Shown: piece by piece, positions 3,434 through 64,000 of the stretch
How the letters are laid out: the number at the start of each line of letters is the position of its first letter
Position numbering within the stretch: the stretch's first letter is position 1
Source of the DNA: Eledone cirrhosa
Taxonomy: Eukaryota
DNA: 64,000 nucleotides
Direction of reading: 5' to 3'
Assembly (NCBI GenBank): GCA_964016885.1
Contig: OZ024747.1
Span: forward strand, 72,912,001-72,976,000
Translations under genes and position numbers: made by a program
The notes under the pieces: model-generated
Told to the model about the DNA's origin: nothing
Database searches by the model: none
The model's input: the letters and a program-made list of their open reading frames with translations, nothing else

Positions 3434-3820
3434 ATACTTTGGGAGGGTCATGTTGCCAATAAGGAACACACGCACCAGTTGTTTCACTTCAATTTATTAT
3501 AATACATTTATAAATTTAGGAATTTATAAATTTCCGGTTGGTTGGTGGGTTCCACAACCAGATGGTTGTTTATATATTGTCAAAGTTCTTTCGTCACACA
3601 TTCTGTGACCTCTTCAGTGACTGGGGATTCTTTTCTTTGTTTTTTGTGCCTCTCCTTTGTTCTGTCCTACGCCATCTTGTTTTTGTGTGTGTGTTGTGTG
3701 CTTAGTTTGCGCATGTGTTACATCCGGGTGTCTGTGTGTGTTTATATTCGTTTATTTATTTGTTTATTTACATGTTACTGGTTGTTTGTTTGTTCTATGT
3801 GTGTTATGCAACATATAATA
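3430..3820 (-). mobile_element. Solo terminal repeat (pLTR) of a Penelope-like element abutting (TA)n
   Basis: The minus strand ends ATGACCCTCCCAAAGTATAACAA(TA)n, nearly identical to the end of the element at 26163-26185, and carries a hammerhead motif. Confidence 0.7.
3579..3621 (-). ncRNA. Type I hammerhead ribozyme motif (minimal)
   Basis: GUCA-CUGAAGA-G-GUCACA(GAAUG)UGUGAC-GAAA-GAAC-UU-UGAC; stems I and II pair, stem III is minimal. Confidence 0.65.
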
Positions 3821-3829
3821 AGCTAGTAT

Positions 3830-5533
3830 ACATATCTAGGACCACATACAATACATAAGCAGGTAATACACACATCTAGGACCACATACAACACAGTCAG
3901 GTAATACACACAGCTAGAACCACATACAACACATAAGCCGGTAATACACGCATCTAGGACCACATACAACACATAAGCAGGTAATACACACATCTAGGAC
4001 CACATACAACACATAAGCAGGTAATACACACATCTAGGACAACATGCAACACATAATCAGGTAGTACACACATCTAGGACCACATGCAACACACAAGCAG
4101 GTAATACACACATCTAGGACCACATACAACATATACGCAAGTAATACACACATCTAGGACCACATACAACACACAAGCAGGTAATACACACATCTAAGAC
4201 CACATACAACATACAAGCAGGTAATACATACATCTAGGACCACATACAACACACAAGCAGGTAATACACACATCTAGGACCATATACAACACACAAGCAG
4301 GTAATACACACAACTAGGACCACATACAACACACAAGCAGGTAATACACACATCTAGGACCACATACAACACACAAGCAGGTAATACACACAACTAGGAC
4401 CACATAAAACACACAAGCAGGTAATACACACATCTAGGACCACATACAACACACAAGCAGGTAATACACACATCTAGGACCACATACAACACACAAGCAG
4501 GTAATACACACATCTAGGACCACATAAACACACAAGCAGGTAATACACACATGTAGGACCACATACAACACACAAGTAGGTAATACACACATCTAGGACC
4601 ACATAGAACACACAAGCAGGTAATACACACATCTAGGACCACATACAACACACAAGCAGGTAATACACACATCTAGGACCACATAGAACACACAAGCAGG
4701 TAATACACACATCTAGGACCACATACAACACACAAGCAGGTAATACACACATCTAGGACCACATACAACACACAAACAGGTAATACACACAGCTAGGACC
4801 ACATGCAACACATAAGCAGGTAATACACACATCTAGGACCACATACAACACACAAGCAGGTAATACACACATCTAGGACCACATACAACACACAAGCAGG
4901 TAATACACACAGCTAAAACCACATGCAACACACAAGCAGGTAATACACACATCTAGGACCACATTCAACACACAAGCAGGTAATACACACAACTAGGACC
5001 AGATACAACACATACGCAAGTAATACACACATCTAAGACTACATACAACGCACAATCAGGTAATACACACATCTAGGACCACATACAACACACAAGCAGG
5101 TAATACACACATCTAGGACCACATACAACACACAAGCAGGTAATACACACATCTAGGACCACATACAACACACAAGCAGGTAATACACACATCTAGGCCC
5201 ACATACAACACACAAGCAGGTAATACACACATCTAGGACCACATACAACAGATAAGAAGGTAATACACACATCTATGACCACATACAACACAAGCAGGTA
5301 ATACACACAGCTAGGACCACATACAACACACAAGCATGTAATACACACATCTAGGACCACATACAACACACAAGCAGGTAATACACACATCTAGGACCAC
5401 ATACAGCACATTAGCAGGTAATACACACATCTAGGACCACATGAAATACATAAGCAGGTAATACATACATCTAGGACCACATGAAATACATAAGCAGGTA
5501 ATACATACATCTAGGACCACATGCAACACACAT
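3830..5533. repeat. 40-bp minisatellite, roughly 42 copies
   Basis: Unit ACACATCTAGGACCACATACAACACACAAGCAGGTAATAC repeated in tandem with few variants. Confidence 0.97.
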
Positions 5534-7845: not shown

Positions 7846-8326
7846 AAAAAGGTGACGTGGTTGCCTAAACACTGTACGGCGTAATTCGGGCTGTTTGTTT
7901 GTTTACAAACGAACAAACCGAGCATTATAGTAAGTGTTCGGTAAACTGATACGTGCATATATGTATGTGTGCCTGTATGTATATATATACATGCTACTGT
8001 ACGTCTGTATACATATATGTATGTGTGCCTGTATGTATATATATACATGCTACTGTACGTCTGTATACATATATGTATGTACGTATACATACATACTTAC
8101 ATTTAAGTAAGTGCCGTACTAAGAGTGAGAAATGAAATTTCGTTTCATTCTATTCCATTTATATATATATACACACATCGTATAAGTTTCCATATACACC
8201 TTACCTCAGTTATAAGGAGTGTCTCCTTGGATGTTAATGTAAGTGGAGCACGATAAGTAGCTTCATTACAAAAATAACATTCTTTATCTGCCTGCCTGTC
8301 TATCTATCTATCTACCTATCTATCTC

Positions 8327-9218
8327 AGTGGAGACTCCACTTCGACATTCTATAGAGGGATTGTACGTTACAAGGTCGACGACGTGCTCGGAGAGACTCT
8401 GGGCGTCGAAGACGATGAGCTCGCCAGTCTGTTTGGTAGGACTTTCCGCCCGGGACCTATGGACAACTTCCAGAGGTCCCTGGCCTGGCAGTGCTACCGA
8501 GGAGCTCTACCGGATCGTGACAAGATCTACAGGCACGGACGCCCTGGCAGGGATCCTTCCAAGAGGACGTGTCCAAGATGTGCGCAGGACATTGAAACAG
8601 TTCTGCACGCAATTGTACACTGCCCGGGCGTAAGCGACCTGTGGAACTATGCAGAACAACTGCTGTCGCGTATGGGACAAATCCAGTTGACTGCCGAGTC
8701 CATAGTAAGGATCAAACCGCCAGACTCTTTCAAAAACGAAAGAGAGGCGGTTTTCCTCTGTACGGTGGCTATGGTGAAAGAAGTTATATGGTGGACGAGG
8801 TTGAGAGGACTGAGGACAGATGCCTTTCTCTCCGGACAACAATTGATTCCCTTCTTTAAGTATCACTTTAGAAGGAGAATCAGGGTGGAGAGAGAGGCAC
8901 TGCACCCCAGTAAATTTACTGAAAGGTGGGTGAATGAAGCGAAAATGGCCCGAGTGATTGGGCCTTCTCTGTTTATAAGCCTGTAGGTTGAGGAAGAGAG
9001 CAAAAGGAAGAAAGGAGCACTTGCACAACACGCTCCTTGAGTTGAGGGTTGTTCTATCGACGGGGTATTAAACAACCCATTTGTGGCGCCTCCCCCTATT
9101 GGGGATTTCGATTGTTGAAATTGTTTGTTTTTATATTTTTTACACGACTGTATGTAAAATCCCCGGCATGTCTTTGTATTGTCCCCTTTCTTGTTGCGCC
9201 TTTGTGGCTAATAAAGAA

Positions 9219-9313: not shown

Positions 9314-9547
9314 AAAATCTAGCTGTCGTCTGTTCTACAGTGTGGATGTAATTCACTTCGCGCAGAAGTTTTGTTCAAATTTATTGCGGAAATTTTGTGA
9401 GTTCAAATTTAATTTTGATACTATTGTGTAGCTTGACCCCCCTTCTGAACTGTCAGGTGGTGGGTCAGCTCATCTTTACCCCTCCTAGAGGTGAAAAACC
9501 TATTTTAAAATATTTTGTGGCAAAAAAAGTTCAATCGTCTGACAGAA

Positions 9548-11434
9548 ATGTTAAACGAAGCGAACGAAAATAGTGGTGGGGGGACAGCGGTAAGAGTTGT
9601 AAGCTCGCACGCTTTAGTCCCCCCTTCCTTCCCAACTAACGTCATAGAGAAGGAAGGAAAAATTAAAGTAAAAACAGACGAATCTGTGGAGAAAAAAAAT
9701 GATGAAAACACAAATCTGGACATGGATTCCAACAACGAAAAAAAAAAATTTGAAAAATTGCATGACAATACTAACACCACAAACAAAGACACAACAAACA
9801 CAAAAATAACATTTGAAAATAACACCATAACAGAAAGCAAAGCAGACGACAAGATTTCATTTGCACAGACAACAAAGAAATCTTTGACTTATATACCCGA
9901 AAATATTTCAGATGTGGCACGAAGAATCACAGACGCCAAACAATACATAAGTGAAGGAGAGAATGGTATTTTATCGGTAAAAATGCCTCAAGAATTCACC
10001 AAAGACATTGAAAGCCGAACGGTCAAGTTCCGCACCATCAACAACACTTCAAAAAAACCTGAACAGCCTTCTCAAGCAGATATCAAAACAGTACTCACAG
10101 AAGTACTTAATGAAACCACTTTCATAAGAAAAGACAGACTGTATGGAAGCCTATCAATTATCATGAAGAACGAATCGGCGGCAAAAAAATGTGCTTTGTC
10201 ACCGATTCGTTCGAAAAATTTTACCTTTTATCCATCTTATATGGGTAAAAGAACTCAACGCATATGGCTGGATGCAATGATGCCAGATGTGGACTACTGC
10301 TGGCTCATAGCTGGCTTCATCGATCCAGCGAATGACAACGTGATTTCCATTGGGAAAACCACAGGCAATGCGTTCAGTGGAACAGGTATAGAGCTTGTAG
10401 TGCAAATGAAGCCTGAACGCATCGCCCAAATACCCGACAGAATCCTATTAGAGGGCCACGGGTATATAAACATTAGCGTGGAGGGGAGAAGGCCGACCTG
10501 CCATATCTGTGCAGGCAGAGGGCACCTGAAGGCCGCTTGTCCCCAACTCAACAAAAAGAAAACCCTGCTACCAACACCAGCTCCACCACCACCGCCACAA
10601 CAGATAAACAAACAACAAAACTCGTCCCTCAGTAAAACCACACCACCACCACCACAACACAAACAGTCACAACACATTACCCCAAAACAAAATACAGGCC
10701 CACCCAACCTCTCACTCAATAAAACAACACAACCACCGCAGACACAACACACAACACAGTCTAACATAGTGACATCCATCTCCCCCACAAAGAAAACCAA
10801 CACGGAAACATTACCAGCAAATATACCTCTTCCCTCCAACACTGAAGATAACCCAACGAATTCGGAGGTAGAAACGGAGTCCTTCAGACAGATTAAAAGG
10901 AAAAAAAGAAAACATGTGCAAAACACACAAGGACAAACAACCCCCACCCAAATCTCAACACAATCCAACAAAACAGAAAACACCCATCCAGCAACAAACA
11001 AAACCAAACCTGCCCCTCCCCTCTTCGAAACACTCACACCATCCGAAAAAAAGACATGACACTATACTTACATCAACAGAAACAATAATAAATTAAATGA
11101 ACTCATAAACAATAATCCTTCGGTACAAACCGAAGGTGTAAACTTTGTTTCTTCAGAAAACTACCCACATTTAAAATTAATAAAGATCCCAATGAACCTC
11201 TACCAAAAACTAAAAAAGGATTTTAAGGAGGACGTAGGACCACCCTCTGTCAAACCCATAAACCGCGTCCTACTAAAAAGCTTTCCCCCTCCCCTTCCTC
11301 TCTCCAACACAACTCCAAACACCCCAACCCCACCACACACTGACGACCCCACACCACCACAAGACACCCCTTCACCCAACACCCCCGACCCCATGGAAGT
11401 CGTGCAACCCGAACCCCGGGAAGCGGAAAGGTAG
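9548..11434 (+). pseudogene. ORF1 (gag-like nucleic-acid-binding protein) of copy A with one in-frame TGA at 11057-11059
   Basis: CHICAGRGHLKAAC knuckle; ORFs 9515-11059 and 11192-11434 are in the same frame, and the sequence after the stop (HYTYIN..NRVLLK) matches copies B and D. Confidence 0.85.
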
Positions 11435-11467
11435 GTCTCTACACTCTCCTTTGGCTCTGCCGCCCAC

Positions 11468-14400
11468 ATGGATGTGTTAAGAGTAGGATGTTTGAATGCA
11501 CGTGGCCTGGGCTCAACTTGGAAGCAAGCAAAGCTTCTAAATGACCTCAGGTCATGTAGTATAAATGTAATGGTTATCTGTGAGACTCGAATCAGCATCG
11601 TGCGGCAGCTGGTCCCCACCTCCGATGACTTTGAGGTGCATGCATCTCTCTGTCAACCTGGAGGTGGGGGTGGGGTTGTCGTACTGCTGCAAAAACACCT
11701 GGGTCTTGCCGTACAGGTTGTGCACTCGGAACCGGAGGGTCGTTTGTTGGTGCTAGACGTTGGCAGTAGTGAAAGTGCGGCCTTGAGACTGGTCGCCGTC
11801 TACTCCCCTTTCGGAGCTGAACGGCCCGACTTCTTCCAGCGTTTGGAGACTTTTCTGGGAACGTCGCGTTCCCTGCTTCTAGCGGGGGATTGGAATGACA
11901 TCCTAGATGCACGTTGGGACTATGCAGGAGCATGTCCTAATAGAGGGGGGTGTAACAGCCTCAAGGGGTTACTCGACCGTTTTAATTTGGTCGATAGACA
12001 TCGACTAGATTTTCCAACTGTGCCTACCTGGACTTGGAGAAACCACAGTGGTCAATCTAGATCGTACTTAGATAGATTCTTAGTTAGAAGTAAGGATAGG
12101 GACATATTAAGCTGTCCAGAAATGCGCACGGTTGGCTACACGGATCACAAATTAGTGACCTGCGTAGTCAATCTCGAGAAAACACATAAACAGGGTCCCG
12201 GTTACTGGAAACTTAATTTGTCTTTACCGGCAAAAGAGACTTACAGAAACCGGATTAGCAGATTAGTTAAGGAGAGGTTGACGGGTGCAATCGTCAACAA
12301 CCGATGGTGGGCATCTCTCAAAAGAGAGATTAGAACAGAATCAATAAGTTATAGCAAGATGTTAGCTGCCGATAGGAATAGAAACGAGAAAGAATTAACA
12401 GGTAAATTAGAAGAGGCAATCAAGAGCGAAGATGTGGCCAGAGTGCTGGCATCGAGGACGGCCTTGAACCAGTTTTTCGATGCAAAGCACGAAGGCTGCG
12501 TCATTCGAAGTAAAATACGTGCTCTAGGTAATGAGGGGGCCAAAGCCGTTGGCTGGGCCCGCGTGACAGAAGCTAAGAGTGGAAATCGATCCACCATCCG
12601 GTCGTTGCAAGACGAAGATGGACGGGTGATCCGGGAGCCTAAGCAGATGTGCGAGGCCTTTCAAAGGCACTTTGCCCGATTGTTCGGGGGAGGCGAGGGT
12701 CCAGGCGGGGGCGTGGATTTCGGCCCATACCTCGACGGCCTGCCGCGTCTCTCGAGCGAAGAGGCAGAGTCTTGCGAGGGACCAATCTCGGCTGATGAGA
12801 TCGGAGATGCGCTGAGCCAATGCAGCAGACGCAAATCTCCAGGTCTCGATGGTATACCTTACGAACTTTATTTAGCAATGCCGGTCTTCTTCTCCGAACT
12901 ACTCGAAGCGGTCTACTGCAATTGGCAGCAGAACGGGAGAATTCCTTGTTCTGTAGCCAAGGACGTAGTCACGCTGGTGAGGAAGGACGAGAACAAGGGA
13001 GATAGTATAAATAATTTTCGGCCCATAACCCTGCTAAACACAGAGTTAAAGATTTTAGCCAAGGTGTTAGCAAAGAGGTTGGCGCTTGTCGTGGGTAGCC
13101 TGGTGGGAGATGCGCAGACATGTGCTATCCCATCCAGGTCCATTCACGATAACCTCCACCTCATGCGATACATCATAGAGAGGGTTGGCAACAAACCCGG
13201 CTTCGGTGGGGCCCTGATCAACTTGGATCAGTCTAAGGCCTTCGATAGGGTCGACCATGGTTACCTGGATGCGGTGCTAGCGGCGGCTGGGTTCGGTCCT
13301 GTTTTCAGAGGCTGGATCACTGCCTTACATAGCAACCACATCTGTTCTAGGATCAAGGTGAACGGCTACCTTTCGAAGCCGTTCGAAATCACACGATCCA
13401 TTCGACAGGGGTGCCCTCTCTCCTCCCTTCTGTACGTATTGACTCTCGAGCCTTTACTGAGGAAGTTGGAGTTGTTGCAGGGTATCCCCCTGGAACCAGG
13501 ATTGAGCAAAGCGGTGTCGGCCTACGCCGATGACGTAACAGTAATGGTATCGACCGACTCGGAGATCGAGGCGATCGGTACCTTACTGGAGGATTACGGA
13601 AGGTTGTCAGGAGCGAAACTGAACCGGGAAAAATCCATCGGGCTGCAACTCGGAACGTGGAGAGGCAGACCGATGCCTCCCGACGGTGTCGTCGGACACT
13701 GGACGGAGGGCCCGGTAAAGTTGCTTGGGGTCTGGTTTGGACCGGACCTCCAGGTGGAAAAGAACTGGAACGAGGTTACGAACAAGGTGTTTGCACTAAC
13801 CCAGAAATGGGCCAAGTGTAAGCTGTCCCTAAAAGGCCGGGCGGAGGTGGCGAACATTTACATAGCGTCCGTCACTTACTACAGCCTGACTGTCGTGCCT
13901 TGCACTAAGGAAACACTCACCACCATGGAACGCATGCTCTTCCAATTTCTTTGGAAGAAGCGCCCTCCTATGGTGAGAAGATCCATCTGCTGCCAACAAC
14001 TTTCGAAAGGAGGGCTGGGGATGCCGTGGTTGATGATGCGTAGGCACGCATTAAGGCTACGGCACCTACAGGTATTCCTCACTGGTCAACCGGTGTGGGC
14101 TCCGTTCGTGAAACGAGCCTTTCCGAGACTTGTCTCGCTCACCGAGCTACAGTCCTGGGTCAAGCAAAGATCCGGAAAACTGGGAGACTGGCACACTGAG
14201 TGTGCTCAGGCGCTCAGGGCTCTCTGGAAAGCGGGCCAGGCCATCGGTGGAGAATCCACCTCATCATTCTATAGAGGGCTGGTGGCTAGCAGGGGCGATG
14301 ACGCCCTTGGAGAGTCGCTGGACATGGAAGAAGACGAACTGGCCAGCCTGTTTGGTAGGACTTTCGGCCCAGGACCAATGGACAACTTCCAGAAGTCACT

Positions 14401-14905
14401 GGCCTGGCAGTGCTACCGAGGGGCTCTACCCGTTCGAGAGAGGCTCTATAGACACGGGCGCCCAGGCAGGGATCCCTCAAAAAAGATTTGCCCTAGATGC
14501 GTGCGTCACGAAGAAACCGTTGTGCACGCATTGGTGCAATGTCCGGGCGTGGCTGATCTGTGGGGCTACGCCGAACGACTGCTGTCGCGGGTGGCGCCGA
14601 TTCAATTGACCGCCGAGTCCGTGATGACAATCAAACCGCCTCCCCTCTTCACAAAGGAAGCAAAAGCGGTTTTTCTGTGCGTAATAGCCATGTTGAAAGA
14701 GGTTGTTTGGTGGACACGATTGAAAGGTCTGAGGTCAGACAACTTCCTCTCTGGCCATAGTCTGGTCTACTTCTTACGATATCACTTCGGAAGAAGGATA
14801 AGAATGGAGAGAGAGGTGCTTGGCAACAGCCAGTTTTATGAAAGGTGGGTAATAGTGGCGAGAATGGCTCGTGTAAATGGGCCTTCTCTGTATACCATCC
14901 TGTAG
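11468..14905 (+). CDS. ORF2 of copy A: APE endonuclease, reverse transcriptase and C-terminal zinc knuckle; intact, 1145 aa
   Basis: LNARGL, GDWN, SYLDRF and TDHK (APE); GYWKLN; LDQSKAFDRV, QGCPLS and YADD (RT); KGGLG; CPRC..ETVVH..C. Confidence 0.96.
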   Translation: MDVLRVGCLNARGLGSTWKQAKLLNDLRSCSINVMVICETRISIVRQLVPTSDDFEVHASLCQPGGGGGVVVLLQKHLGLAVQVVHSEPEGRLLVLDVGSSESAALRLVAVYSPFGAERPDFFQRLETFLGTSRSLLLAGDWNDILDARWDYAGACPNRGGCNSLKGLLDRFNLVDRHRLDFPTVPTWTWRNHSGQSRSYLDRFLVRSKDRDILSCPEMRTVGYTDHKLVTCVVNLEKTHKQGPGYWKLNLSLPAKETYRNRISRLVKERLTGAIVNNRWWASLKREIRTESISYSKMLAADRNRNEKELTGKLEEAIKSEDVARVLASRTALNQFFDAKHEGCVIRSKIRALGNEGAKAVGWARVTEAKSGNRSTIRSLQDEDGRVIREPKQMCEAFQRHFARLFGGGEGPGGGVDFGPYLDGLPRLSSEEAESCEGPISADEIGDALSQCSRRKSPGLDGIPYELYLAMPVFFSELLEAVYCNWQQNGRIPCSVAKDVVTLVRKDENKGDSINNFRPITLLNTELKILAKVLAKRLALVVGSLVGDAQTCAIPSRSIHDNLHLMRYIIERVGNKPGFGGALINLDQSKAFDRVDHGYLDAVLAAAGFGPVFRGWITALHSNHICSRIKVNGYLSKPFEITRSIRQGCPLSSLLYVLTLEPLLRKLELLQGIPLEPGLSKAVSAYADDVTVMVSTDSEIEAIGTLLEDYGRLSGAKLNREKSIGLQLGTWRGRPMPPDGVVGHWTEGPVKLLGVWFGPDLQVEKNWNEVTNKVFALTQKWAKCKLSLKGRAEVANIYIASVTYYSLTVVPCTKETLTTMERMLFQFLWKKRPPMVRRSICCQQLSKGGLGMPWLMMRRHALRLRHLQVFLTGQPVWAPFVKRAFPRLVSLTELQSWVKQRSGKLGDWHTECAQALRALWKAGQAIGGESTSSFYRGLVASRGDDALGESLDMEEDELASLFGRTFGPGPMDNFQKSLAWQCYRGALPVRERLYRHGRPGRDPSKKICPRCVRHEETVVHALVQCPGVADLWGYAERLLSRVAPIQLTAESVMTIKPPPLFTKEAKAVFLCVIAMLKEVVWWTRLKGLRSDNFLSGHSLVYFLRYHFGRRIRMEREVLGNSQFYERWVIVARMARVNGPSLYTIL

Positions 14906-15119
14906 GTAAGGAAGTGAAGGAGAGGGGAGCACCTTCTCCATGTGCTCCCCGGGCAAAGGATTGCACACTTTTTCGGAAGTGTGTGCAACCCCCATCATGT
15001 CCCCTCCCCTTTGAGGTTATTTTCGATTATTTTCATGTTACACCCTTTTTACTCGATTGTATGTAAACTTCCCCTTTGTATTTGTCCCTTCTTTTTATGC
15101 CTTTATGGTAAATAAAGAA

Positions 15120-15120
<1 letters not shown>

Positions 15121-15204
<84 letters not shown>

Positions 15205-15238
15205 CCTACCTACCTATCTATCTATCTATCTCTCTATC
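15121..15238. repeat. (TCTA)n microsatellite between LINE copies A and B
   Basis: TCTA tract with a few CCTA variants. Confidence 0.99.
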
Positions 15239-15455
15239 AGACGTGTATAACTTCGCGGAGAAGTTTCCGTTAATTTATGTAAGAAAAAAACGTGAGTTTT
15301 TAGTTAAATTTTATATCATTGTGTAACTTGACCCCCCGTCTGGACCTTCAGGTGGTGGGTCAACTCATTTTCGCCCCTACAGGGGCGGAATATCCATTTA
15401 AAAATTTTTCTCCATCGAATCTTGGAAAAAAATATTGTAAAATTTTGATCACGTT

Positions 15456-17375
15456 ATGAACGCTGCGTCCAACGATAATGGTGGTGGAGAGGCGGTAAGA
15501 CTACAAAGCTCGCAGTCAACAACGTCTTCTTCACTAGATACTATAGAGATGGAAAGACAAAATGAAAATAAAAAAACGAATTCATATCCAAACAACACAA
15601 ATGACACCAAACAGTTCAATGACAACAAAAATAACAGCAAAATCAATAATGATGATAAAAGCAACAATGATAACAACAACAAAGAAAAAAATAAAGACAA
15701 CGCCAATAACACCAGCATCAAAGACAACAACAACACCAAGGAAAATACGGATGATACCAACATCGGTGACAACAAGAATAACAACAAGAATAACAACAAT
15801 AATGACAACACCACCAATACGGATTCCACAAAGAAACCAAAACTCTCCTTTGCGGAGAAAGTTCAAAAGAAAGAAGAATTGATATATCTCGACATAACAA
15901 ATGCTGAACAACTTTTAAAGGACGCTAAGAGATATGTCACTTTCGAAAAAAAATGGTGCTTTCAGCATCAATTCTCCGGTAGAAATTCGCAAGGAAACTG
16001 CTCTCAAAACGATAGTTTTTAGGACAGTTTCCAATTCTACCCGAAAACCAGTCCAATTGTCACAGAAAGAAATTGAACTGGTTTTCAAAAATTAAATGAA
16101 TGATATTGCATTCATTCAAAGAAGCAAACTTTTTGGGAGTATTTCGGTACTCATGAAGGATCAATTGACGGCCCAAAATTACTCTGTGTCGCCAATTGTA
16201 TCCAACCTGTACACCTTTTTCCCTACATACATGGGAAAAAGGACACAAAAGATCAGAATCACGAGTGTCACACCAAAGGTGAACATATGGTGGATACTGT
16301 GCGGTTTCATCAATTTTGATGAAGACAGAATACTGTCAGTAGGAAAGTCCCCCAGAGATGTATTCAATGGGACTAGCATTGAAGTTCTGGTGCAAATGAG
16401 CCCAGAGCGAATAGCTATGATCCCACAGCGTGTACTCCTGGACGGACTCACCTACATAAACTTTTCGGTTGAGGGTAGGCGGCCTTCATGTTACCATTGC
16501 TTTAGCAGGGGTCACCTGAGGGCTTCCTGTCCTAAACTAATGAACCAAAAAAAGGCTCTTCTGCCGACACCCATCAAAACAACACAACCACCAACACCAC
16601 CACAACAACAACAACAACACCAACACACAAAAATAACCACAACAAACACAGTCCCACCCAACCCCACTCCACCTAAAACCACTGCAAAATCACATACAGA
16701 CACAACAGCTCCCCAAGACATACCCTCCCCAATCACACAGACGATACAACAGATGAGGCTATCTCGCCATCACCCAGTGAAGACGAGGGAGAACCCCATC
16801 GCTCGAAAAGAAAGAAAAGACATCACAAAAGCAAAAAACCAGCAAACACTACCACAAACATACAACCACCAACACAAACAACAAAAATATCACAAACAAA
16901 ACCCCCACCTCCTGAAAACAAAATACCTACAACAAAACGAAAGCACACACAAGAACTACAGACAAAAACAAACACAACACAAGAAAATTACACTTACACT
17001 TACATAAACACTGAAAACAAAACACTAATGGAGACCATCACGAACGATCCTTCGGTTTTCACCGAAGGGAAAACTTTCGCCCACTCTATTAAAAATAGCA
17101 AAAAACTGAACCTAAAACTGATTAGGGTCCCTATACAAACTTATAGGTCCCTAAAAGAAACATTTGAGAAGGATGTGGGGAATTCCTGCGTGAAACCACT
17201 CAACCGCGTCCTTCTCAAATGCCTCCCCACCCCAGACACCCCCATCCCACCAGACCCCACCCCACCAAACATCTGCGTCCCCACCCCGCCGGAAACCACC
17301 ACCCATCCAGACAACCCCTCCAACACCCCCATGGAAATCGTGCGGCCTGGTCCCCAGGAGGCGAAGGGTGAGTGA
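15456..17375 (+). pseudogene. ORF1 of copy B, split by frameshifts
   Basis: Pieces 15456-16022, 16096-17007 and 17028-17375 match copy A ORF1 (GGGEAVR, YMGKRTQ, VEGRRPSCYHCFSRGHLRASC, KPLNRVLLK). Confidence 0.88.
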
Positions 17376-17408: not shown

Positions 17409-20400
17409 ATGGCCAATATAAGAGTTGGATGTGTGAACATACGCGGCCTGGGGATGCCCTGGAAACAGGGCAAACTCTTAAACGACCTCAGGTCGCACAG
17501 TATGGATGTGGTAGCCATTTGCGAGTTCAGGATCCACGGCGAGCGACAGCTGGCCCCCATCTTCGATGACTTTGAGATCTACGCATCTCTCTGTCAACCG
17601 GGGGGTGTGGGCGGAGTTGCCGTTTTGCTGCGGAAACACCTGGGCCTCGTAACACAGACAGTACATCTGGACCCGGAGGGTCGACTGGTGGTCCTAGACG
17701 TTGACGGTAGTGAAGGTGGAGCCTTCAGGCTGGTGGCCGCATATGCCCCATCCGGGACACCGCGGCCAGACTTCTTCAAACGTCTAGAGACTTTTCTGGG
17801 AACGTCCCGCTCCTTGCTTTTAGTGGGGGACTGGAATGGAATCCTAGATGCACGTTGGGACTATGTGGGAGCATGTCCCGATAAAGGGGGGCGTAACAGC
17901 CTCAAACAGTTAATCGACCGATTTGACCTGGCCGATAGATATCGACTAGATTTTCCGACTGCGCCACTGTGGACGTGGAGTAATCGTAGCGGAACATCTA
18001 GACCGTACCTAGATAGGGTTCTAGTTAGAAATAAGGATAGGGACATGTTAAGCTGTCCACAAATGTTCATGGTTGCCTATTCAGATCACAAACTAGTGAC
18101 CTGCATGGCCAACCTTGATAGAACCCATAGACAAGGACCCGGCTACTGGAAGCTGAACTTGTCGTTACCGACAAGCAAAGCCTACAGTAGACGGATTAGC
18201 ACTTTAGTTAAACAGCACTTGACAGGGGCCATTGTCAACAACAGATGGTGGTACACTCTCAAGAGGGCAGTTAGATTAGACTCGATAGTTTTTAGTAAAG
18301 AATTAGCGTTAGATAGAAATAGAACCGAGAAGGAACTGGTAGATAAAGTAGAAGAGGCAATTAGAAGTGGCAACGTAGCCAGCGTGCTAGCAACGAGAAC
18401 GGCCTTGGACCAGTTCTTCGACGCAAAGCACGAGGGCTGCGTTGTCAGAAGCAAAATACGTGCTCTGGGAAACGAGGGAGCCAAAGCTGTTAGCTGGGCC
18501 CGAGTGACGGAGGCAAAAAGTGGCAACAAGTCCACGATTCGGTCTTTGAAGGACCAAAACGGACGCGTGATACGTGAGCCGAAGCAGATGTGTGCGGCTT
18601 TTCAGCGGCACTTTGCTCGGCTGTTCCGGGGGAGCGGCGCGCCGGGAGAGGCTATGGATTTCGGTCCATACCTCGACGGCCTACCGCGACTCTCGGACAG
18701 CGAGGCAAAGTTCTGCGAAAATCCGATTTCAGCCACTGAGATAGGGGATGCGCTGAGCCAATGCGGCAAACTCAAATCTCCAGGTCTCGACGGTCTACCC
18801 TACGAATTTTACGTAGCAATGCCGGACTTATTCTCCGGTCTCCTGGAAGCGGTCTACTGCAACTGGCAACAGAACAGGAGAATTCCCAGTTCTGTAACCG
18901 GGGGCGTGGTCACACTAATCAGGAAGGACGAGAATAAGGGGGATGACATAGGAAACTTCCGGCCCATAACTCTGCTAAACACAGAGTTACAGATTTTGGC
19001 CAAGGTGTTGGCAAAGAGGCTGGCGCTTGTCGAGAACCTGGTGGGAGAAGCGCAGACATGCGCAATCCCGACCAGGTCTATACACGACAACCTCCACCTC
19101 ATGCGATACATCATAGAGAGGGTAGGGTGTAAACCCGGCTTCGGTGGGGCCCTGATCAACTTGGATCAGTCTAAGGCTTTCGATAGGGTTGACCATCGTT
19201 ACCTGGATGCGGTGCTCGAGGCGGCAGGCTTCGGACCCGTGTTCAGGGGCTGGATTGCTGCAATGCACAACAGCAACATTGCTCAAGGGTCAAGGTGAAC
19301 GGCTACCTCTCGGAGCCGTTCCATATTACGCGATCCATTCGACAGGGATGCCCTCTCTCCTCCCTTCTGTACGTACTGACTCTCGAGCCACTACTGCGGA
19401 AGCTGGAGCTATTGCAGGGCATCCCTCTGGAACCGGGACTGCGGAAAGCGGCGTCGGCCTACGCCGACGACGTGACAGTAATGGTGTCGAGCGCCTCGCA
19501 AATCGAGGAAGTCGGCACCTTACTGAAGGAATACGAAAGTGTCACAGGAGCGAAGCTGAACCGGGACAAGTCCATCGGTTTGCAACTCGGATCGTGGAGA
19601 GGCAGACCGATGCCTTCCGATGGCGTCGTCGGACGCTGGACGGAAGGACCGGTAAAGCTGCTCGGGGTCTGGTTTGGTCCGGACCTCCAGGTGGAGAAGA
19701 ACTGGAACGAAGTGACGGCCAAGGTGTTTGCACTCACCCAGAAGTGGGCCGAGTGCAAACTATCCTTGAAAGGTCGAGCGGAGGTGGCGAACACTTTTAT
19801 AGCGTCCGCCATCTACTACCGCTTGACCGTCGTGCCTTGTCCAGCCAAAACGCTCGCCAAAATGGAGCGCGCGCTCTTCCGATTCCTTTGGAAGAGGCGG
19901 GCTCCTTTGGTGAGAAGATCCATCTGCTGCCAACACCCTTCTAACGGAGGGCTGGGGATGCCGTGGTTGACGATGCGCAAACACGCGCTCAGGCTGCGGC
20001 ATCTCTACGTATTCCTCAGCGGACAACCGGTGTGGGCCCCGTTCGTGAGGCGAGCCTTCCCACGAGTCGTCTCGCTGACGGAGCTGCAGTCCTGGGTCAA
20101 GCAAAGACCGAGGAAAATGGGCGACTGGCACATCGAATGTGCTCAGGCGCTCACAGCCCTCTGGCAGGTGGACCCGGCGATCAGTGGAGACTCCACTTCG
20201 TCATTCTATAGAGGGTTGGTCCGCAGCAAGTGCGACGACGCGCTCGGTGAAACTCTAGGCGTAGAGGAAGATGAACTGGCTAGTCTGTTCGGTAGGACCT
20301 TCCGCCCGGGACCGATGGACAACTTCCAAAAGTCCCTGGCCTGGCAGTGCTACCGAGGAGCTCTACCAGTTCGAGACAAGCTCTACAGACATGGGCGCCC

Positions 20401-20842
20401 GGGCAGGGACCCTGCAAAAAAGATCTGTCCGAGGTGCGTGCGAGACGAAGAAACCGTCGCGCACGCATTCATACACTGCCCGGGCGTCACTGACCTGTGG
20501 GGCTATGTAGAACGACTATTGTCGCGGGTGGGACCAATCCAGTTGACCACCGAGTCCATTGTCATGATCAAACCACCACCCTCCTTCAAAAACGAAGGAG
20601 AGGCGGTTTTCCTTTGTGTGATAGCTATGGCGAAAGAGGTTGTATGGTGGACAAGGTTGAAAGGGCTGAGGTCAGACACCTTTCTCTCCGGCCAACAACT
20701 GATTCTTTTTTTCAAATACCACTTTGGAAGAAGAATCAGGATGGAGAGAGAGGTGCTGTACCCCAGCAAGTTTTATGAAAGGTGGGTGAAAGTGGCGAGA
20801 ATGGCCCGAGTGAGTGGGCCTTCTCTCTATATCAGCCTGTAG
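17409..20842 (+). pseudogene. ORF2 of copy B (APE-RT) with one frameshift near 19280
   Basis: ORFs 17409-19298 and 19295-20842 together align over the full length of copy A ORF2. Confidence 0.93.
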
Positions 20843-21117
20843 GTTGAGGAAAAGGAGAAGGAAAGGAAAGGAGTACAAACTCTTCGTACTCCTGGAGATG
20901 AGGGTTGCACATTTTTTTTCGGGGGTATGTGTTACCCATATAAACTGTCTCCCTCTATTGGGGAAAATCGACTAACTTTTAAATTCCATCTGTGATAACA
21001 TTTTACACGTTTTTATTGTATGTAAACTTCCCCCTTTGTATTTGTCCCCTTCTTTTGTGCCCCTGTGGCTAATAAAGAAATATATCTATCTCTTTCTCTC
21101 ACTCTCTCTCTCTCTCC

Positions 21118-59913: not shown

Positions 59914-62900
59914 TTTCTATTTATTTGCCACGAGGGCACAAAAGAAGGGGACATTTACACAGTGGGGGAGTTTACATAAATCGAGTAAAGAAAAAAGGAA
60001 TAACAATAATAATATAACAATAAAAAGTCCTCAAAAGGGAGGGGGCGTGTTGGGGATTGCACATACCCCCGAAAAGTGTGCTACTCTTTTCGCGGGGCAA
60101 GCCCAGAGAGGAGGCGCTCCCCCTTTCCTCTTCACTTCTTCACCTACAGAACAATGTAGAGAGAAGGCCCATTTACACGGGCCATTCTCGCTTCTTTCAC
60201 CCACCTTTCATAAAACTGTCTGGGACCAAGCACTTCTCTCTCCATCCTGATCCTTCTTCCGAAGTGGTATCGGAAGAAGTAAACCAGGTGATGGCCGGAG
60301 AGAAAGTCACCCGACCTCAGACCTTTCAGGCGCGTCCACCACACAACCTCTTTCATCATGGCTATTACGCATAGAAAGACCGCCTCTGCTTCATTTCTGA
60401 AGGGAGGAGGCGGCTTGATGTTCACCACAGACTCGGCGGTTAATCGAATCGGCGCCACACGCGACAGCAGTCGATCGACGTAGCCCCACAGATCGGCAAC
60501 GCCCGGGCAGTGTACCAGTGCATGCGCAACGGTTTCCTCGTCGCGCACGCATCTGGGACAGATCTTTTTCGCGGGATCCCTGCCCGGGCGCCCGTGTCTG
60601 TAGAGCTTTTCTCGAACGGGCAGAGCCCCCGGTAACACTGCCAGGCTAGGGACCTCTGGAAGTTGTCCATGGGTCCCGGGCCGAAAGTTCTACCGAACAG
60701 GCTGGCCAGTTCGTCCTCCTCCTCCATGCCTAGCGACTCTCCAAGGGTGTCGTCGCCCCTGCTAGCCACCAACCCTCTATAGAATGTCGAGGTGGATTCT
60801 CCACTGACAGTCGGGTCCGCTTGCCAGATAGCCGTGAGCGCCTGGGCACACTCGGTGTGCCAGTTGCCCAGTTTTCTCGGTCTTTGCTTCACCCAGGATT
60901 GCAGTTCGGTGAGCGAGACGAGCTGTGGGAAGGCTCGCCTCACAAACGGGGCCCACACCGGCTGACCGTTGAGGAATACCTGTAGATGCCGTAGCCTCAA
61001 TGCGTGCCTACGCATCAACAGCCACGGCATACCCAGCCCTCCTTTCGAAGGGTGCTGGCAGCAGATGGATCTCCTCACCATGGGAAGCCGCTTCTTCCAG
61101 AGGAACTGGAAGAGCATGCGTTCCATGATGGTGAGCTTTTCCTTGGGGCAAGGCACGACGGTCAGGCGGTAGTAGATGACGGACGCTATGTAAGCGTTCG
61201 TCACCTCCGCCCGACCTTTCAGTGATAGTTTGCACTTGGCCCACTTCTGGGTCAGCGCAAACACCCTGCTCGTCACCTCGCCCCAATTCTTCTCCACCTG
61301 GAGGTCCGGTCCGAACCAGACCCCGAGCAGCTTCACCGGGCCCTCCGTCCACCGCCCGACGACACCGTCTAACGGCATCGGTTTGCCCCTCCACGTTCCG
61401 AGTTGCAAACCGACTGACTTGTCCTGGTTCAGCCTAGCCCCCGTCAGCCTTTCGTATTCCTCCAGTAGGGTGGCGATCGCCCCGATTTCCGAGGCGTCCG
61501 CCACCATTACTGTTACGTCGTCGGCATAGGCCGAGACCGCTTTGTGCAATCCCGGTTCCAGGGGTATGCCCCGCAGCAACTCCAACTTCCGCAGCAGTGG
61601 CTCGAGAGTCAATACGTACAGAAGGGAGGAGAGGGGGCACCCCTGTCTGATGGATCGGGTGATTTGAAACGGCTCCGAGAGGTAGCCGTTTACTTTAATC
61701 CTAGAGTAGATGTTGCCACTGTGCATGGCAGAAATCCAGCCCCTGAAAACGGGTCCGAAGCCCGCCGCCGCTAGCACCGCATCCAGGTAACCATGGTCGA
61801 CCCTATCGAACGCCTTAGATTGATCCAAGTTGATCAGGGCCCCACCAAAGCCGGGTTCGTTGCCAACCCTCTCTATGATGTATCGCATGAGGTGGAGGTT
61901 GTCGTGAATGGACCTGGACGGGATAGCGCATGTCTGCGCGTCTCCCACCAAACCACCCACCACAAGCGCCAACCTCTTCGCCAACACCTTGGCCAAAATC
62001 TGTAACTCTGCATTCAGCAGAGTTATGGGCCTAAAGTTACTTAAGTCGTCCCCCTTGCTCTCGTCCTTCCTCACTAGCGTGACCACGCCCTTGGTCACAG
62101 AACAGGGAATTCTCCTGTTCTGTTGCCAGTTGCAATAGACAGCCTCGAGGAGTTCGGAGAACAAGACCGGCATAGCTAAATAAAATTCGTATGGTAGACC
62201 ATCGAGACCCGGGGATTTGCCTCTGCTGCATTGGCTGAGCGCTTCCCCGATTTCAGTGGCTGTGATTGGCCTTTCGCAGCACTCCGCTTCGCCGCTCGAA
62301 AGACGCGGTAGACCGTCGAGGTATGGACCGAAGTCCACATCCCCGTCCGGCCCACCGCCCCCTCCGAACAGTCGAGCAAAGTGCCTTTGAAAGGCCTCGC
62401 ACATCCGCTCAGGTTCAAGGATCACCCGTCCATCCTGGTCTCGCAAAGACCGAATGGTGAATTTAATCCCACTCTTGGCTTCTGTCACGCGGGCCCAGCT
62501 AACAGCTTTGGTCCCCTCGTTTCCTAAAGCACGTATTTTACTTCGGACAACGCAGCCTTCGTGCTTCGAGTCAAAGAACTGGCTCAATGCCGTTCTCGTC
62601 GCTAACACTCTGGCTACGTCTCCGCTCCTAATCGCCTCTTCTAGTTTATCTGTTAACTCCCTTTCCCTCCTATTTCTATTCGCCGCTAGTTCCTTACTGT
62701 AACCTATCGAACTTACTCTAATCTCTCTCTTTAGAGATATCCACCACCTACTGTTGACGATCGCTCCCGTCAACCGCATCTTAACTAAGCTACTAATCCG
62801 GTTTCTGTAATCTTTCTTTGTCGGTAAGGACAAGTTCATCTTCCAGTAACCGGGACCCTGTCTATGCGTTCTATCAAGGTTGACCACGCAGGTCACTAAT

Positions 62901-64000
62901 TTGTGATCTGAATAGCCAACCATGATCAGTTCTGGACAACTAAATACGTCCCTATCCTTACTCCTAACCAAAAACCTATCTAGGTACGATCTAGATTGTC
63001 CACTGCGGTTTGCCCAGGTCCAGGTTGGCGCAGTTGGACAATCTAGTCGAAATCTATCGACCAGGTCGAATCGATCGAGTAACCCCTTGAGGCTGCTACA
63101 CCCCCCTCTATCGGGACATGCCCCTGCATAGTCCCAACGCGCATCTAGGATTCCATTCCAGTCCCCCACTAAAAGCAGGGAACGCGACGTTCCTAGAAAA
63201 GTCTCCAGACGCTGGAAGAAGTCGGCTCTTTCCGCCCCGAAGGGAGCATAAAGACCGACCAGTCTGAAAGCCCCGCCTTCACCGCCTCCGACGTCCAGCA
63301 CCAGTAATCGACCCCCCGGGTCCGAGTGAACAATCTGTACGTCGAGAGTCAGACGTTTATCCAGTAGTACGGCAACTCCCCCCCCGCCTCCGGGTTGACA
63401 GAGAGATGCGTGCATCTCAAAGTCATCGAAGGCGGGCGCCAGCTGTCTCACGCTGCTGATCCGACTCTCGCAAACAACCATCACATCTATACTTTGTGAC
63501 CTGAGGTCACTTACAAGCTTTGCTTGCTTCCAAGCTGAGCCCAGGCCACGCGCGTTCAAACAGCCAACTCTCAATTGATCTATTTTGGTGTTGAAAGTGA
63601 AGAAAGAAAAGCACTTACCTCTCCGGGTTGCGTAATTTCCATGGCATCAGGTGTGTTGGGTGGAGGGATGTTTTGTGGTGGTGTGGGGGTACACGTGTGT
63701 AGTGGGGTTTGGGTATTTGGAGTTGTGTCAGGGAGAGGGGCGGTTATGGGGAAATCTTTCAAGAGGACGCGATTCAACGGTTTTAAACAAGGGGGGGCTC
63801 ACGTCCCGTCTAAATTGTTCTTTTAAGGAACGATAAAGGTCCAGAGGGACCTTTATCATTTTTAAATGGGTGAAGTTCTCTGTTGAGATAAAGTTTGGCC
63901 CTTCGGTCTGCACCATAGGGTTATTGTTTATTAATTTAACCAGTTTTTTGTTTTCTTTATTTATATATGTGTATTGCAACGTCTTTTTTTGTGATGCTGT
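59914..64000 (-). mobile_element. Tx1-clade LINE (copy D); 5' part lies beyond the window
   Basis: ORF1 C-terminus (63580-63979, frameshifted), ORF2, and a 3' end AATAAATAGAAA followed by TTTA(TCTA)n on the minus strand. Confidence 0.95.
60144..63583 (-). pseudogene. ORF2 of copy D (APE-RT): start codon reads ATA, one frameshift near 60630
   Basis: ORFs 60440-63574 and 60144-60638 align to copy A ORF2 over the full length. Confidence 0.92.

Follow-up and report, generated by a model that had tools for sequence, protein, structure and literature searches.

The LINE copies at the locus

The window analysed here, a 64,000-nucleotide stretch of the Eledone cirrhosa genome (assembly GCA_964016885.1, contig OZ024747.1, positions 72,912,001 to 72,976,000 of the forward strand), holds four copies of one family of long interspersed nuclear elements (LINEs): copies 0, A and B lie head to tail, with AATAAA signals and (ATCT)n tails, and copy D lies on the minus strand. 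At issue is a motif resembling a 5' splice site at the end of the first open reading frame (ORF1) of this family, and the proposal, made in the initial annotation, that the whole of the second frame (ORF2) can be removed as an intron, leaving an mRNA for the ORF1 protein (ORF1p) alone.

In copy A (plus strand), the 5' untranslated region (UTR; 9315..9547) begins after the (ATCT)n tail of copy 0, at the same start as in the tandem A copies L047, L053 and L054. It is followed by ORF1 (9548..11434), which carries a CCHC knuckle and encodes about 630 amino acids when intact, by ORF2 (11468..14905) with its endonuclease, reverse transcriptase and zf-RVT regions, and by an AATAAA signal and (ATCT)n tail (15111..15235); the proposed intron is 11431-14905. 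An in-frame stop in ORF1 (11057-11059) is private to copy A, being absent from 29 of 29 other A copies. Copy 0 is the 5'-truncated 3' end of a related LINE (8325..9205, plus strand), whose ORF2 stop with its acceptor-like AG ends at 8986. Copy B has a frameshifted ORF2 (17409..20843, plus strand; the corresponding AG ends at 20842), and the ORF2 of copy D (60143..63583, minus strand; AG ending at 60144) has no ATG start, as is the case throughout subfamily D.

Several features place the element in the L1 group of retrotransposons that lack long terminal repeats (LTRs; non-LTR elements), namely two ORFs without LTRs, a 3' AATAAA followed by a simple-repeat tail, the presence of 5'-truncated copies, and an ORF2 that combines an endonuclease, a reverse transcriptase and a C-terminal zinc domain. 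Pfam recognised Exo_endo_phos (E 7e-8) and RVT_1 (E 5e-28) in ORF2, with zf-RVT below its cut-off, and the best match among solved structures was human L1 ORF2p (E 6e-48). ORF1, which is about 630-640 amino acids long across lineages, gave zero domain matches in Pfam; a CCHC motif is visible in all four aligned ORF1 proteins, and their Atlas neighbours are zf-CCHC at 0.92. In its architecture and microsatellite association the element resembles Tx1-like LINEs, a likeness drawn from these traits. According to the parts of the report drawn on here, the Tx1-clade LINEs Kibi and Koshi share with it the endonuclease/reverse transcriptase/zf-RVT ORF2, the CCHC ORF1 and the association with a microsatellite, whereas the present element has (ATCT)n as its repeat, with (TAT)n instead in family H (PMC4494074). 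Truncated copies often start after (ATCT)n. Family A is young: its ORF1/ORF2 junction has 566 exact matches in the genome and many of its copies keep a complete ORF2 frame of 1156 codons.

A conserved donor at the end of ORF1

Other subfamilies were sampled from the same genome with a degenerate ORF2-start pattern (2471 matches outside family A), with a distant homologue, which yielded family H (150 among the matches listed), and through flanking sequences. Thirteen representatives, with ORF2 regions 68-96% identical, were aligned, and family M was added later to make 14; donor counts refer to 185 distinct copies and acceptor counts to 83 ORF2 ends. The 5' end of the U1 small nuclear RNA (snRNA) used for pairing was taken from the host genome itself, in which the U1 snRNA genes form tandem arrays with a 2,674-base period (G000 C2:180973544-180995099 and C1128).

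The donor GT claimed earlier for copies A, B and D is confirmed in its letters and coordinates: the motif overlaps the ORF1 stop codon of copy A at 11428..11436 (GT at 11431), and occurs at 17365..17373 in copy B (GT at 17368), a member of a phase 1 subfamily, and at 63613..63621 on the minus strand in the phase 0 copy D (GT at 63618). Its conservation across many copies, proposed at the same time as a check, is equally clear, the motif being found in 14 of 14 subfamily representatives, at DNA identities as low as about 69%, which span phases 2, 1 and 0 and the ORF1 stops TAG, TGA and TAA. It is matched in 172 of the 185 distinct copies, with scattered single-copy changes in the other 13. The differing phases are subfamily traits, phase 1 being seen again in L134, L136, L140 and L178, and every D copy read being phase 0. 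Five of the nine donor columns (-1, +1, +2, +5 and +6) are invariant among the 13 aligned representatives, compared with 8 of the 60 columns before the motif and 1 of the 31 after it, and +3 and +4 are free to vary, as is typical of U1-type sites. With its GT and its complementarity to U1 from -3 to +6 the motif has the makings of a U2-type 5' splice site. It is the best U1 partner among the 223-494 GT sites of each element in 10 of 13 cases when ranked by energy and in 11 of 13 by pair count, and it comes first of 85 conserved GT columns for its match to U1.

What holds these nucleotides in place, if not the reading frame? The ORF1 stop lies within the motif in most lineages, where it has turned over among TAG, TGA and TAA, all of them compatible with the donor, and the motif stays where the frame has moved, to phase 1 in B', H and H2 and to phase 0 in D, where the stop lies 12 codons on. 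Between donor and ORF2 start (11437..11467 in copy A) runs a spacer that is 80-93% pyrimidine in 13 of 13 representatives, with neither its sequence nor its length conserved. Judged from the alignments, the conservation of the donor exceeds chance; the site is very probably under selection and is likely to be functional as a U1 site. A separate observation concerns an in-frame ATG GA motif some 30-45 nucleotides before the donor (window ~11390-11400), which is invariant in 13 of 13 representatives within the fast-changing tail of ORF1.

Splicing of the donor to an AG close to where ORF2 starts, which would remove a short intron and fuse the two ORFs, was considered and rejected as a conserved design: it would be in frame only in phase 2 lineages, and A, E, F and G do not have the good acceptor that B and H show.

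Chimeric copies that break at the donor

Is there any trace of the donor having been used? A search for ends of B-type ORF1 with any other sequence in place of the normal spacer, the break being allowed at positions 0 to 8, returned 23 matches, of which 4 are point variants with an intact donor and the remaining 19 (18 loci, L242-L259, on G000 C1-C28) all break at position 0. Thirteen of these loci form a group, K1, in which the ORF1 of one lineage is joined to the ORF2 of family M (downstream sequence 94-96% identical to M in most), three of the 13 being truncated too near the joint for their left arm to be assigned. In L266 the left parent survives intact, with GT where the break falls. The right arm is preceded, in the M parent (884 matches), by CAG, 23 nucleotides before M's own donor; CAG precedes this point in 24 of 25 loci read, and a branch-like CTAAT lies about 18 nucleotides upstream of it in most M copies read. 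In the second group, K2 (L245, L246 and L248), a B-lineage ORF1 is joined at the donor into a K1 copy, after a pyrimidine run and CAG, with 75 nucleotides duplicated. There are thus two founding events, both GT-AG compliant and both retaining ORF2; as L243 and L250 need no more than an in-register switch, they were not scored as independent.

A control search anchored at a non-donor AG 23 nucleotides upstream gave 2 matches, neither of them a chimera, and, as aligned, GT..AG ends occur in 0 of 71 background indels. Mixed arrays, with copies head to tail, occur often (the window itself, L033, L041, L048, L049, L261), and read-through splicing between neighbouring copies would therefore be a simple source of chimeras. 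The chimeras are probably, at about three chances in four, retrotransposed splice products between tandem copies, and splicing of this kind is suggested as a concrete route by which a 5' UTR and ORF1 can be replaced in LINE evolution. In K1, as an observation in its own right, the ORF1 frame runs about 21 extra codons beyond the ORF2 start.

The candidate acceptor at the ORF2 stop

The partner envisaged for the donor is a candidate 3' splice site at 14882..14906 (plus strand), made up of pyrimidine-rich codons, the ORF2 stop TAG and a following G. As noted earlier, TAG then G ends ORF2 in all four copies of the window (14903-14906 in A, 20840-20843 in B, 60146-60143 in D and 8984-8987 in copy 0), and a competing AG lies 7 nucleotides upstream in copies 0 and B. 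The same ending is found in 14 of 14 representatives and in 78 of the 83 ORF2 ends collected. The site, YAG|G with 74% pyrimidine, ranks second for pyrimidine content among 85 conserved AG columns, the pyrimidines being weaker in family H, and no conserved branch point was seen upstream of it. It is followed by a purine-rich 3' UTR start (14906..14930), whose purine content in 13 representatives is 68-96%, falling to 32-44% further along. Across representatives, the background of invariance is 35% at twofold purine sites and 22% at fourfold sites, and from these comparisons the conservation of the acceptor is not clearly above chance.

As for the joined product, the initial annotation had maintained that splicing closes ORF1 almost at once whatever the phase. 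Copies A, B and D read as described, and in 10 of the 14 representatives, among them H, H2 and B' in phase 1 and D in phase 0, ORF1 ends no more than 4 codons after the join to the stop AG; the generalisation fails in the remaining 4. The upstream AG, present in 9 of 14 representatives, would close B1, B2 and G in 2 codons and lengthen B' by 35, and with it allowed early closure is reached in 13 of 14, across all three phases. In B', what looks like a one-base loss before the donor would restore the stop that is lost through a one-base gain after the acceptor, a suggestive arrangement that is a single case.

Two hairpins are predicted in the 3' UTR (14924..14991, plus strand), recurring with changed stems across subfamilies; these folds come from single sequences. 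They and their homologues are candidates for tail recognition by the ORF2 protein (ORF2p).

Absence of ORF2-less copies

Genomic copies lacking ORF2 exactly at the proposed boundaries were named in the initial annotation as a trace to look for. Exact-match probes, with a matched positive control run for family A, turned up no such copy in families A, B, B', B'', F, D, E, H, M and B1; precise loss of the proposed intron from genomic copies, a fossil that would be comparable to the human SpIREs, is not seen here. The matches returned for D and M proved to be small indels rather than intron loss. This absence is not fatal to an ORF1-only mRNA, because an RNA without ORF2 has to be copied in trans and L1 proteins prefer their own RNA. 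The available parts of the relevant reports state that L1 proteins favour the RNA that encodes them (PMC5860796) and that stringent LINEs recognise the 3' tail (PMC4176376).

Joints in assembled contigs were also inspected. The 11430-14906 joint is not among the 15 of 81 joints displayed for contigs of four runs on copy A, and the contigs of two of these runs on a B' copy show 3 joints, none of them donor-to-acceptor. Both results carry no weight either way, because assembly into contigs loses rare forms and the runs themselves may be of DNA.

A second donor-like motif in the 5' UTR

A further donor-like GTRAGT stands in copy A's 5' UTR (9397..9402, plus strand), with a T-rich run behind it, and copy B has a donor-like motif in its own 5' UTR (15292..15297, plus strand). 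GTRAGT occurs near the 5' end in 11 lineages or chimeras (A, B', D, E, H, H3, G, B, M, K1 and K2); 7 other copies are without it in the window scanned, most of them lacking a mapped 5' end. The background frequency is 0 in 8,950 nucleotides of ORF1 and 0.11 per kb in ORF2, and the 5' UTRs are otherwise unalignable around the conserved GTRAGT (the window, L261, L248, L171, L176 and L177). In the M and B types a pyrimidine run and a good AG follow about 66 nucleotides after it in 5 of 6 copies, as for a short intron, and a scan of the family A 5' UTR donor for one of three candidate acceptors gave 2 matches, one a duplication and the other a deletion whose end is not AG. This second motif favours a general reliance on U1. 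Before ORF1, a short G/C hairpin (window 9460-9500; L177, L176, L171) was recognised by eye in A, B', D, E and H, its sequence differing between them.

What is the donor for?

A minor ORF1-only spliced mRNA is, on sequence grounds, the most likely purpose of the conserved donor, and we would put its chances at about even. In every lineage examined the family keeps a strong U1-complementary donor where ORF1 stops, and some transcripts, a minority, would likely use it for splicing to the AG of the ORF2 stop, or to the one 7 nucleotides before, giving a short ORF1-only mRNA, while the full-length RNA for retrotransposition would remain unspliced. The short RNA might then supply extra ORF1p and would leave no DNA copies, since ORF2p acts in cis. 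Under this model the AG at the end of ORF2 would be the intended partner of the donor, the chimeras would be reverse-transcribed splice products of transcripts reading through head-to-tail copies, and donor-bound U1 may in addition guard the long RNA, as in the copia element EVD. A broader formulation, held somewhat more tentatively than an even chance, is that the whole of ORF2 is a facultative intron, so that a non-LTR element would have arrived independently at a copia-like strategy, and that the same donor splices across tandem copies, founding mobile chimeric subfamilies with a swapped ORF1 and promoter. The donor half of the earlier proposal is strengthened by the 14 of 14 conservation, the U1 rank and the chimeras. 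The choice of the ORF2-stop AG as its partner has circumstantial support, from the invariant TAG|G, the purine-rich exon start and the early stop in 10 of 14, and the search for ORF2-less copies came back empty.

Several observations weigh against an ORF1-only mRNA. The assembly contains 0 donor-to-3' UTR copies, set against 566 A junctions, 2471 non-A ORF2 starts and 884 M junctions, and with the junction only about 215 nucleotides from the 3' end any trans-copied RNA would show it; as the short form keeps the full 3' tail, an abundant germ-line version of it seems unlikely. At the acceptor, the fourfold sites of the last ORF2 codons are ordinary (rank 198 of 315 windows, hence no excess synonymous constraint), the invariance of TAG plus G would arise by chance with a probability of about 0.06-0.08, given backgrounds of 35-37% and 15-22%, and early closure at the stop AG fails in B1, B2, G and I (44, 33, 71 and 33 codons). 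A conserved donor-like site can also arise from coding alone, as at ORF2 +3377, a candidate dismissed because Arg-Trp-Val codons explain it; unlike that site, the junction donor is not bound to one reading frame. The chimeras, finally, amount to two founding events in one lineage group, with acceptors other than the ORF2-end AG; the A, H, D, E, M and B1 donors yielded no chimera when searched in this way; both joints share a 2-nucleotide AG microhomology, so that template switching is possible; and the region is indel-prone: the 185 copies show 71 indels of at least 12 nucleotides, of which many are noise in the alignment of flanks.

Could the donor serve U1 binding without any dedicated acceptor? 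It may be a landing site for the U1 small nuclear ribonucleoprotein that, together with the 5' UTR site, aids transcription, stability or the protection of a 5.8-kb intronless RNA from premature 3' ends, splicing being an occasional accident and the AG at the end of ORF2 merely its TAG stop. This main rival is a real possibility, on balance a doubtful one. Its main support is the second GTRAGT in 11 lineages or chimeras, to which the lack of ORF2-less copies and of synonymous constraint at the acceptor can be added, as can an AATAAA lying 290-395 nucleotides before ORF2 in 9 of 13 representatives, which may merely reflect Asn-Lys codons. Against it, few such signals (0-2 AATAAA) follow the donor within ORF2. 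Precedents are provided, in the portions of the reports used here, by EVD, where donor-bound U1 blocks premature termination (PMC5580714), and by human L1, whose conserved 5' UTR donor is rarely used and whose mutation lowers RNA about 5-fold (PMC5860796). U1 binding alone leaves unexplained why an exon-like, purine-rich stretch begins after the ORF2 stop and why donor phase and early stop agree in H, B' and D.

Two other explanations were considered. That the motif is a translation signal, providing a context for ORF1 termination and for ORF2 re-initiation with the pyrimidine spacer and resembling a donor by coincidence, would fit with its holding the ORF1 stop in most lineages, with both ORFs ending in a stop followed by G, with a pyrimidine-rich spacer that ends in an initiation-like context, and with the lack of an ATG at the ORF2 start of D, where unusual initiation is needed. 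It is nonetheless improbable, as the motif persists after the stop has moved away (B', H and H2 in phase 1, D in phase 0), varies in the U1 pattern and is exactly where the chimeras break. Slightly more improbable still is a combination of chance and shared ancestry of short motifs, with chimeras produced by template switching at AG microhomology. The 22% of fourfold sites that are invariant across representatives, the in-register recombinants between the same lineages (L213, L219, L265 and L267) and the indel-prone nature of the region all speak for it, and it is opposed by the invariance of 5 of 9 columns at predicted positions within fast-changing, partly non-coding sequence, by the standing of the donor as the best U1 site of more than 200 in most elements, and by both out-of-register chimeras falling at position 0 with CAG on the right, when none of the 71 background indels has GT..AG ends.

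LINE splicing is usually regarded as a host brake or an accident, and a donor held for so long independently of frame would mean that the element gains from recruiting U1. Should the ORF1-only mRNA prove real, it would offer a new answer to how the ratio of ORF1p to ORF2p is set in bicistronic LINEs; should it not, the element would be a clean natural case of splicing-independent use of U1 in an intronless transposon RNA.

Other features of the family

Near-identical copies also form long head-to-tail arrays with a 5.8-kb or 3.9-kb period (G000 C1:423365218-423418069, C1:348919615-348931326 and C2:144360347-144372436), and elements nest within one another's (ATCT)n tails. In subfamily D the ORF2 start codon is replaced by ATA (window 63583, minus strand; L105, L108, L113-L118, L177), which is overlapped by the new ORF1 stop; the subfamily is abundant all the same (10 of 30 loci in one sample), and this abundance points to AUG-independent initiation of ORF2 in D. 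A tandem repeat with a period of about 40 nucleotides (window 3806-5532) is unrelated to the LINE.

Comparison with known systems

The literature searched, a scope that left out subscription papers and Repbase notes, describes neither a conserved donor at the end of ORF1 nor a LINE intron spanning ORF2. ORF1-only derivatives of L1, known as HAL1 (half-L1), exist as genomic families, whereas no ORF1-only copy was found in this assembly for the families probed. The human L1 SpIREs bear a likeness to the chimeras in being retrotransposed spliced LINE RNAs, genomic fossils of a conserved and rarely used donor; in the sections of that report drawn on here, the donor lies in the 5' UTR, promoter or ORF1 sequence is lost, and the products are called dead ends (PMC5860796). 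The present chimeras, by contrast, use the ORF1-end donor, join two copies and keep 5' UTR, ORF1 and ORF2, and one founder has given rise to at least 13 dispersed copies. The SpORF2 transcript of human L1 likewise expresses a single ORF by splicing of a bicistronic LINE RNA, with the difference that ORF1 is removed and ORF2 kept, the reverse of the model proposed here, and what was seen of that paper does not describe it as a conserved design (PMC2896524).

The closest parallel is found in the Arabidopsis Ty1/Copia element EVD, for which the part of the report available here describes a spliced shGAG RNA that encodes the structural protein alone, alongside a dominant full-length RNA that retains the intron (PMC5580714). 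The two elements have in common a conserved U1-type donor after the structural gene and, possibly, the second, protective role that U1 plays in EVD. They differ in that EVD is an LTR element with a short intron coupled to premature polyadenylation, shown by RNA (PMC5580714), whereas in this non-LTR element the proposed intron is all of ORF2 (3.47 kb) and the normal 3' end would be kept. A minor short RNA would be workable here, because the minor spliced RNA of EVD still supplies GAG (PMC5580714). If the model holds, the element works like the copia strategy, but outside that family.

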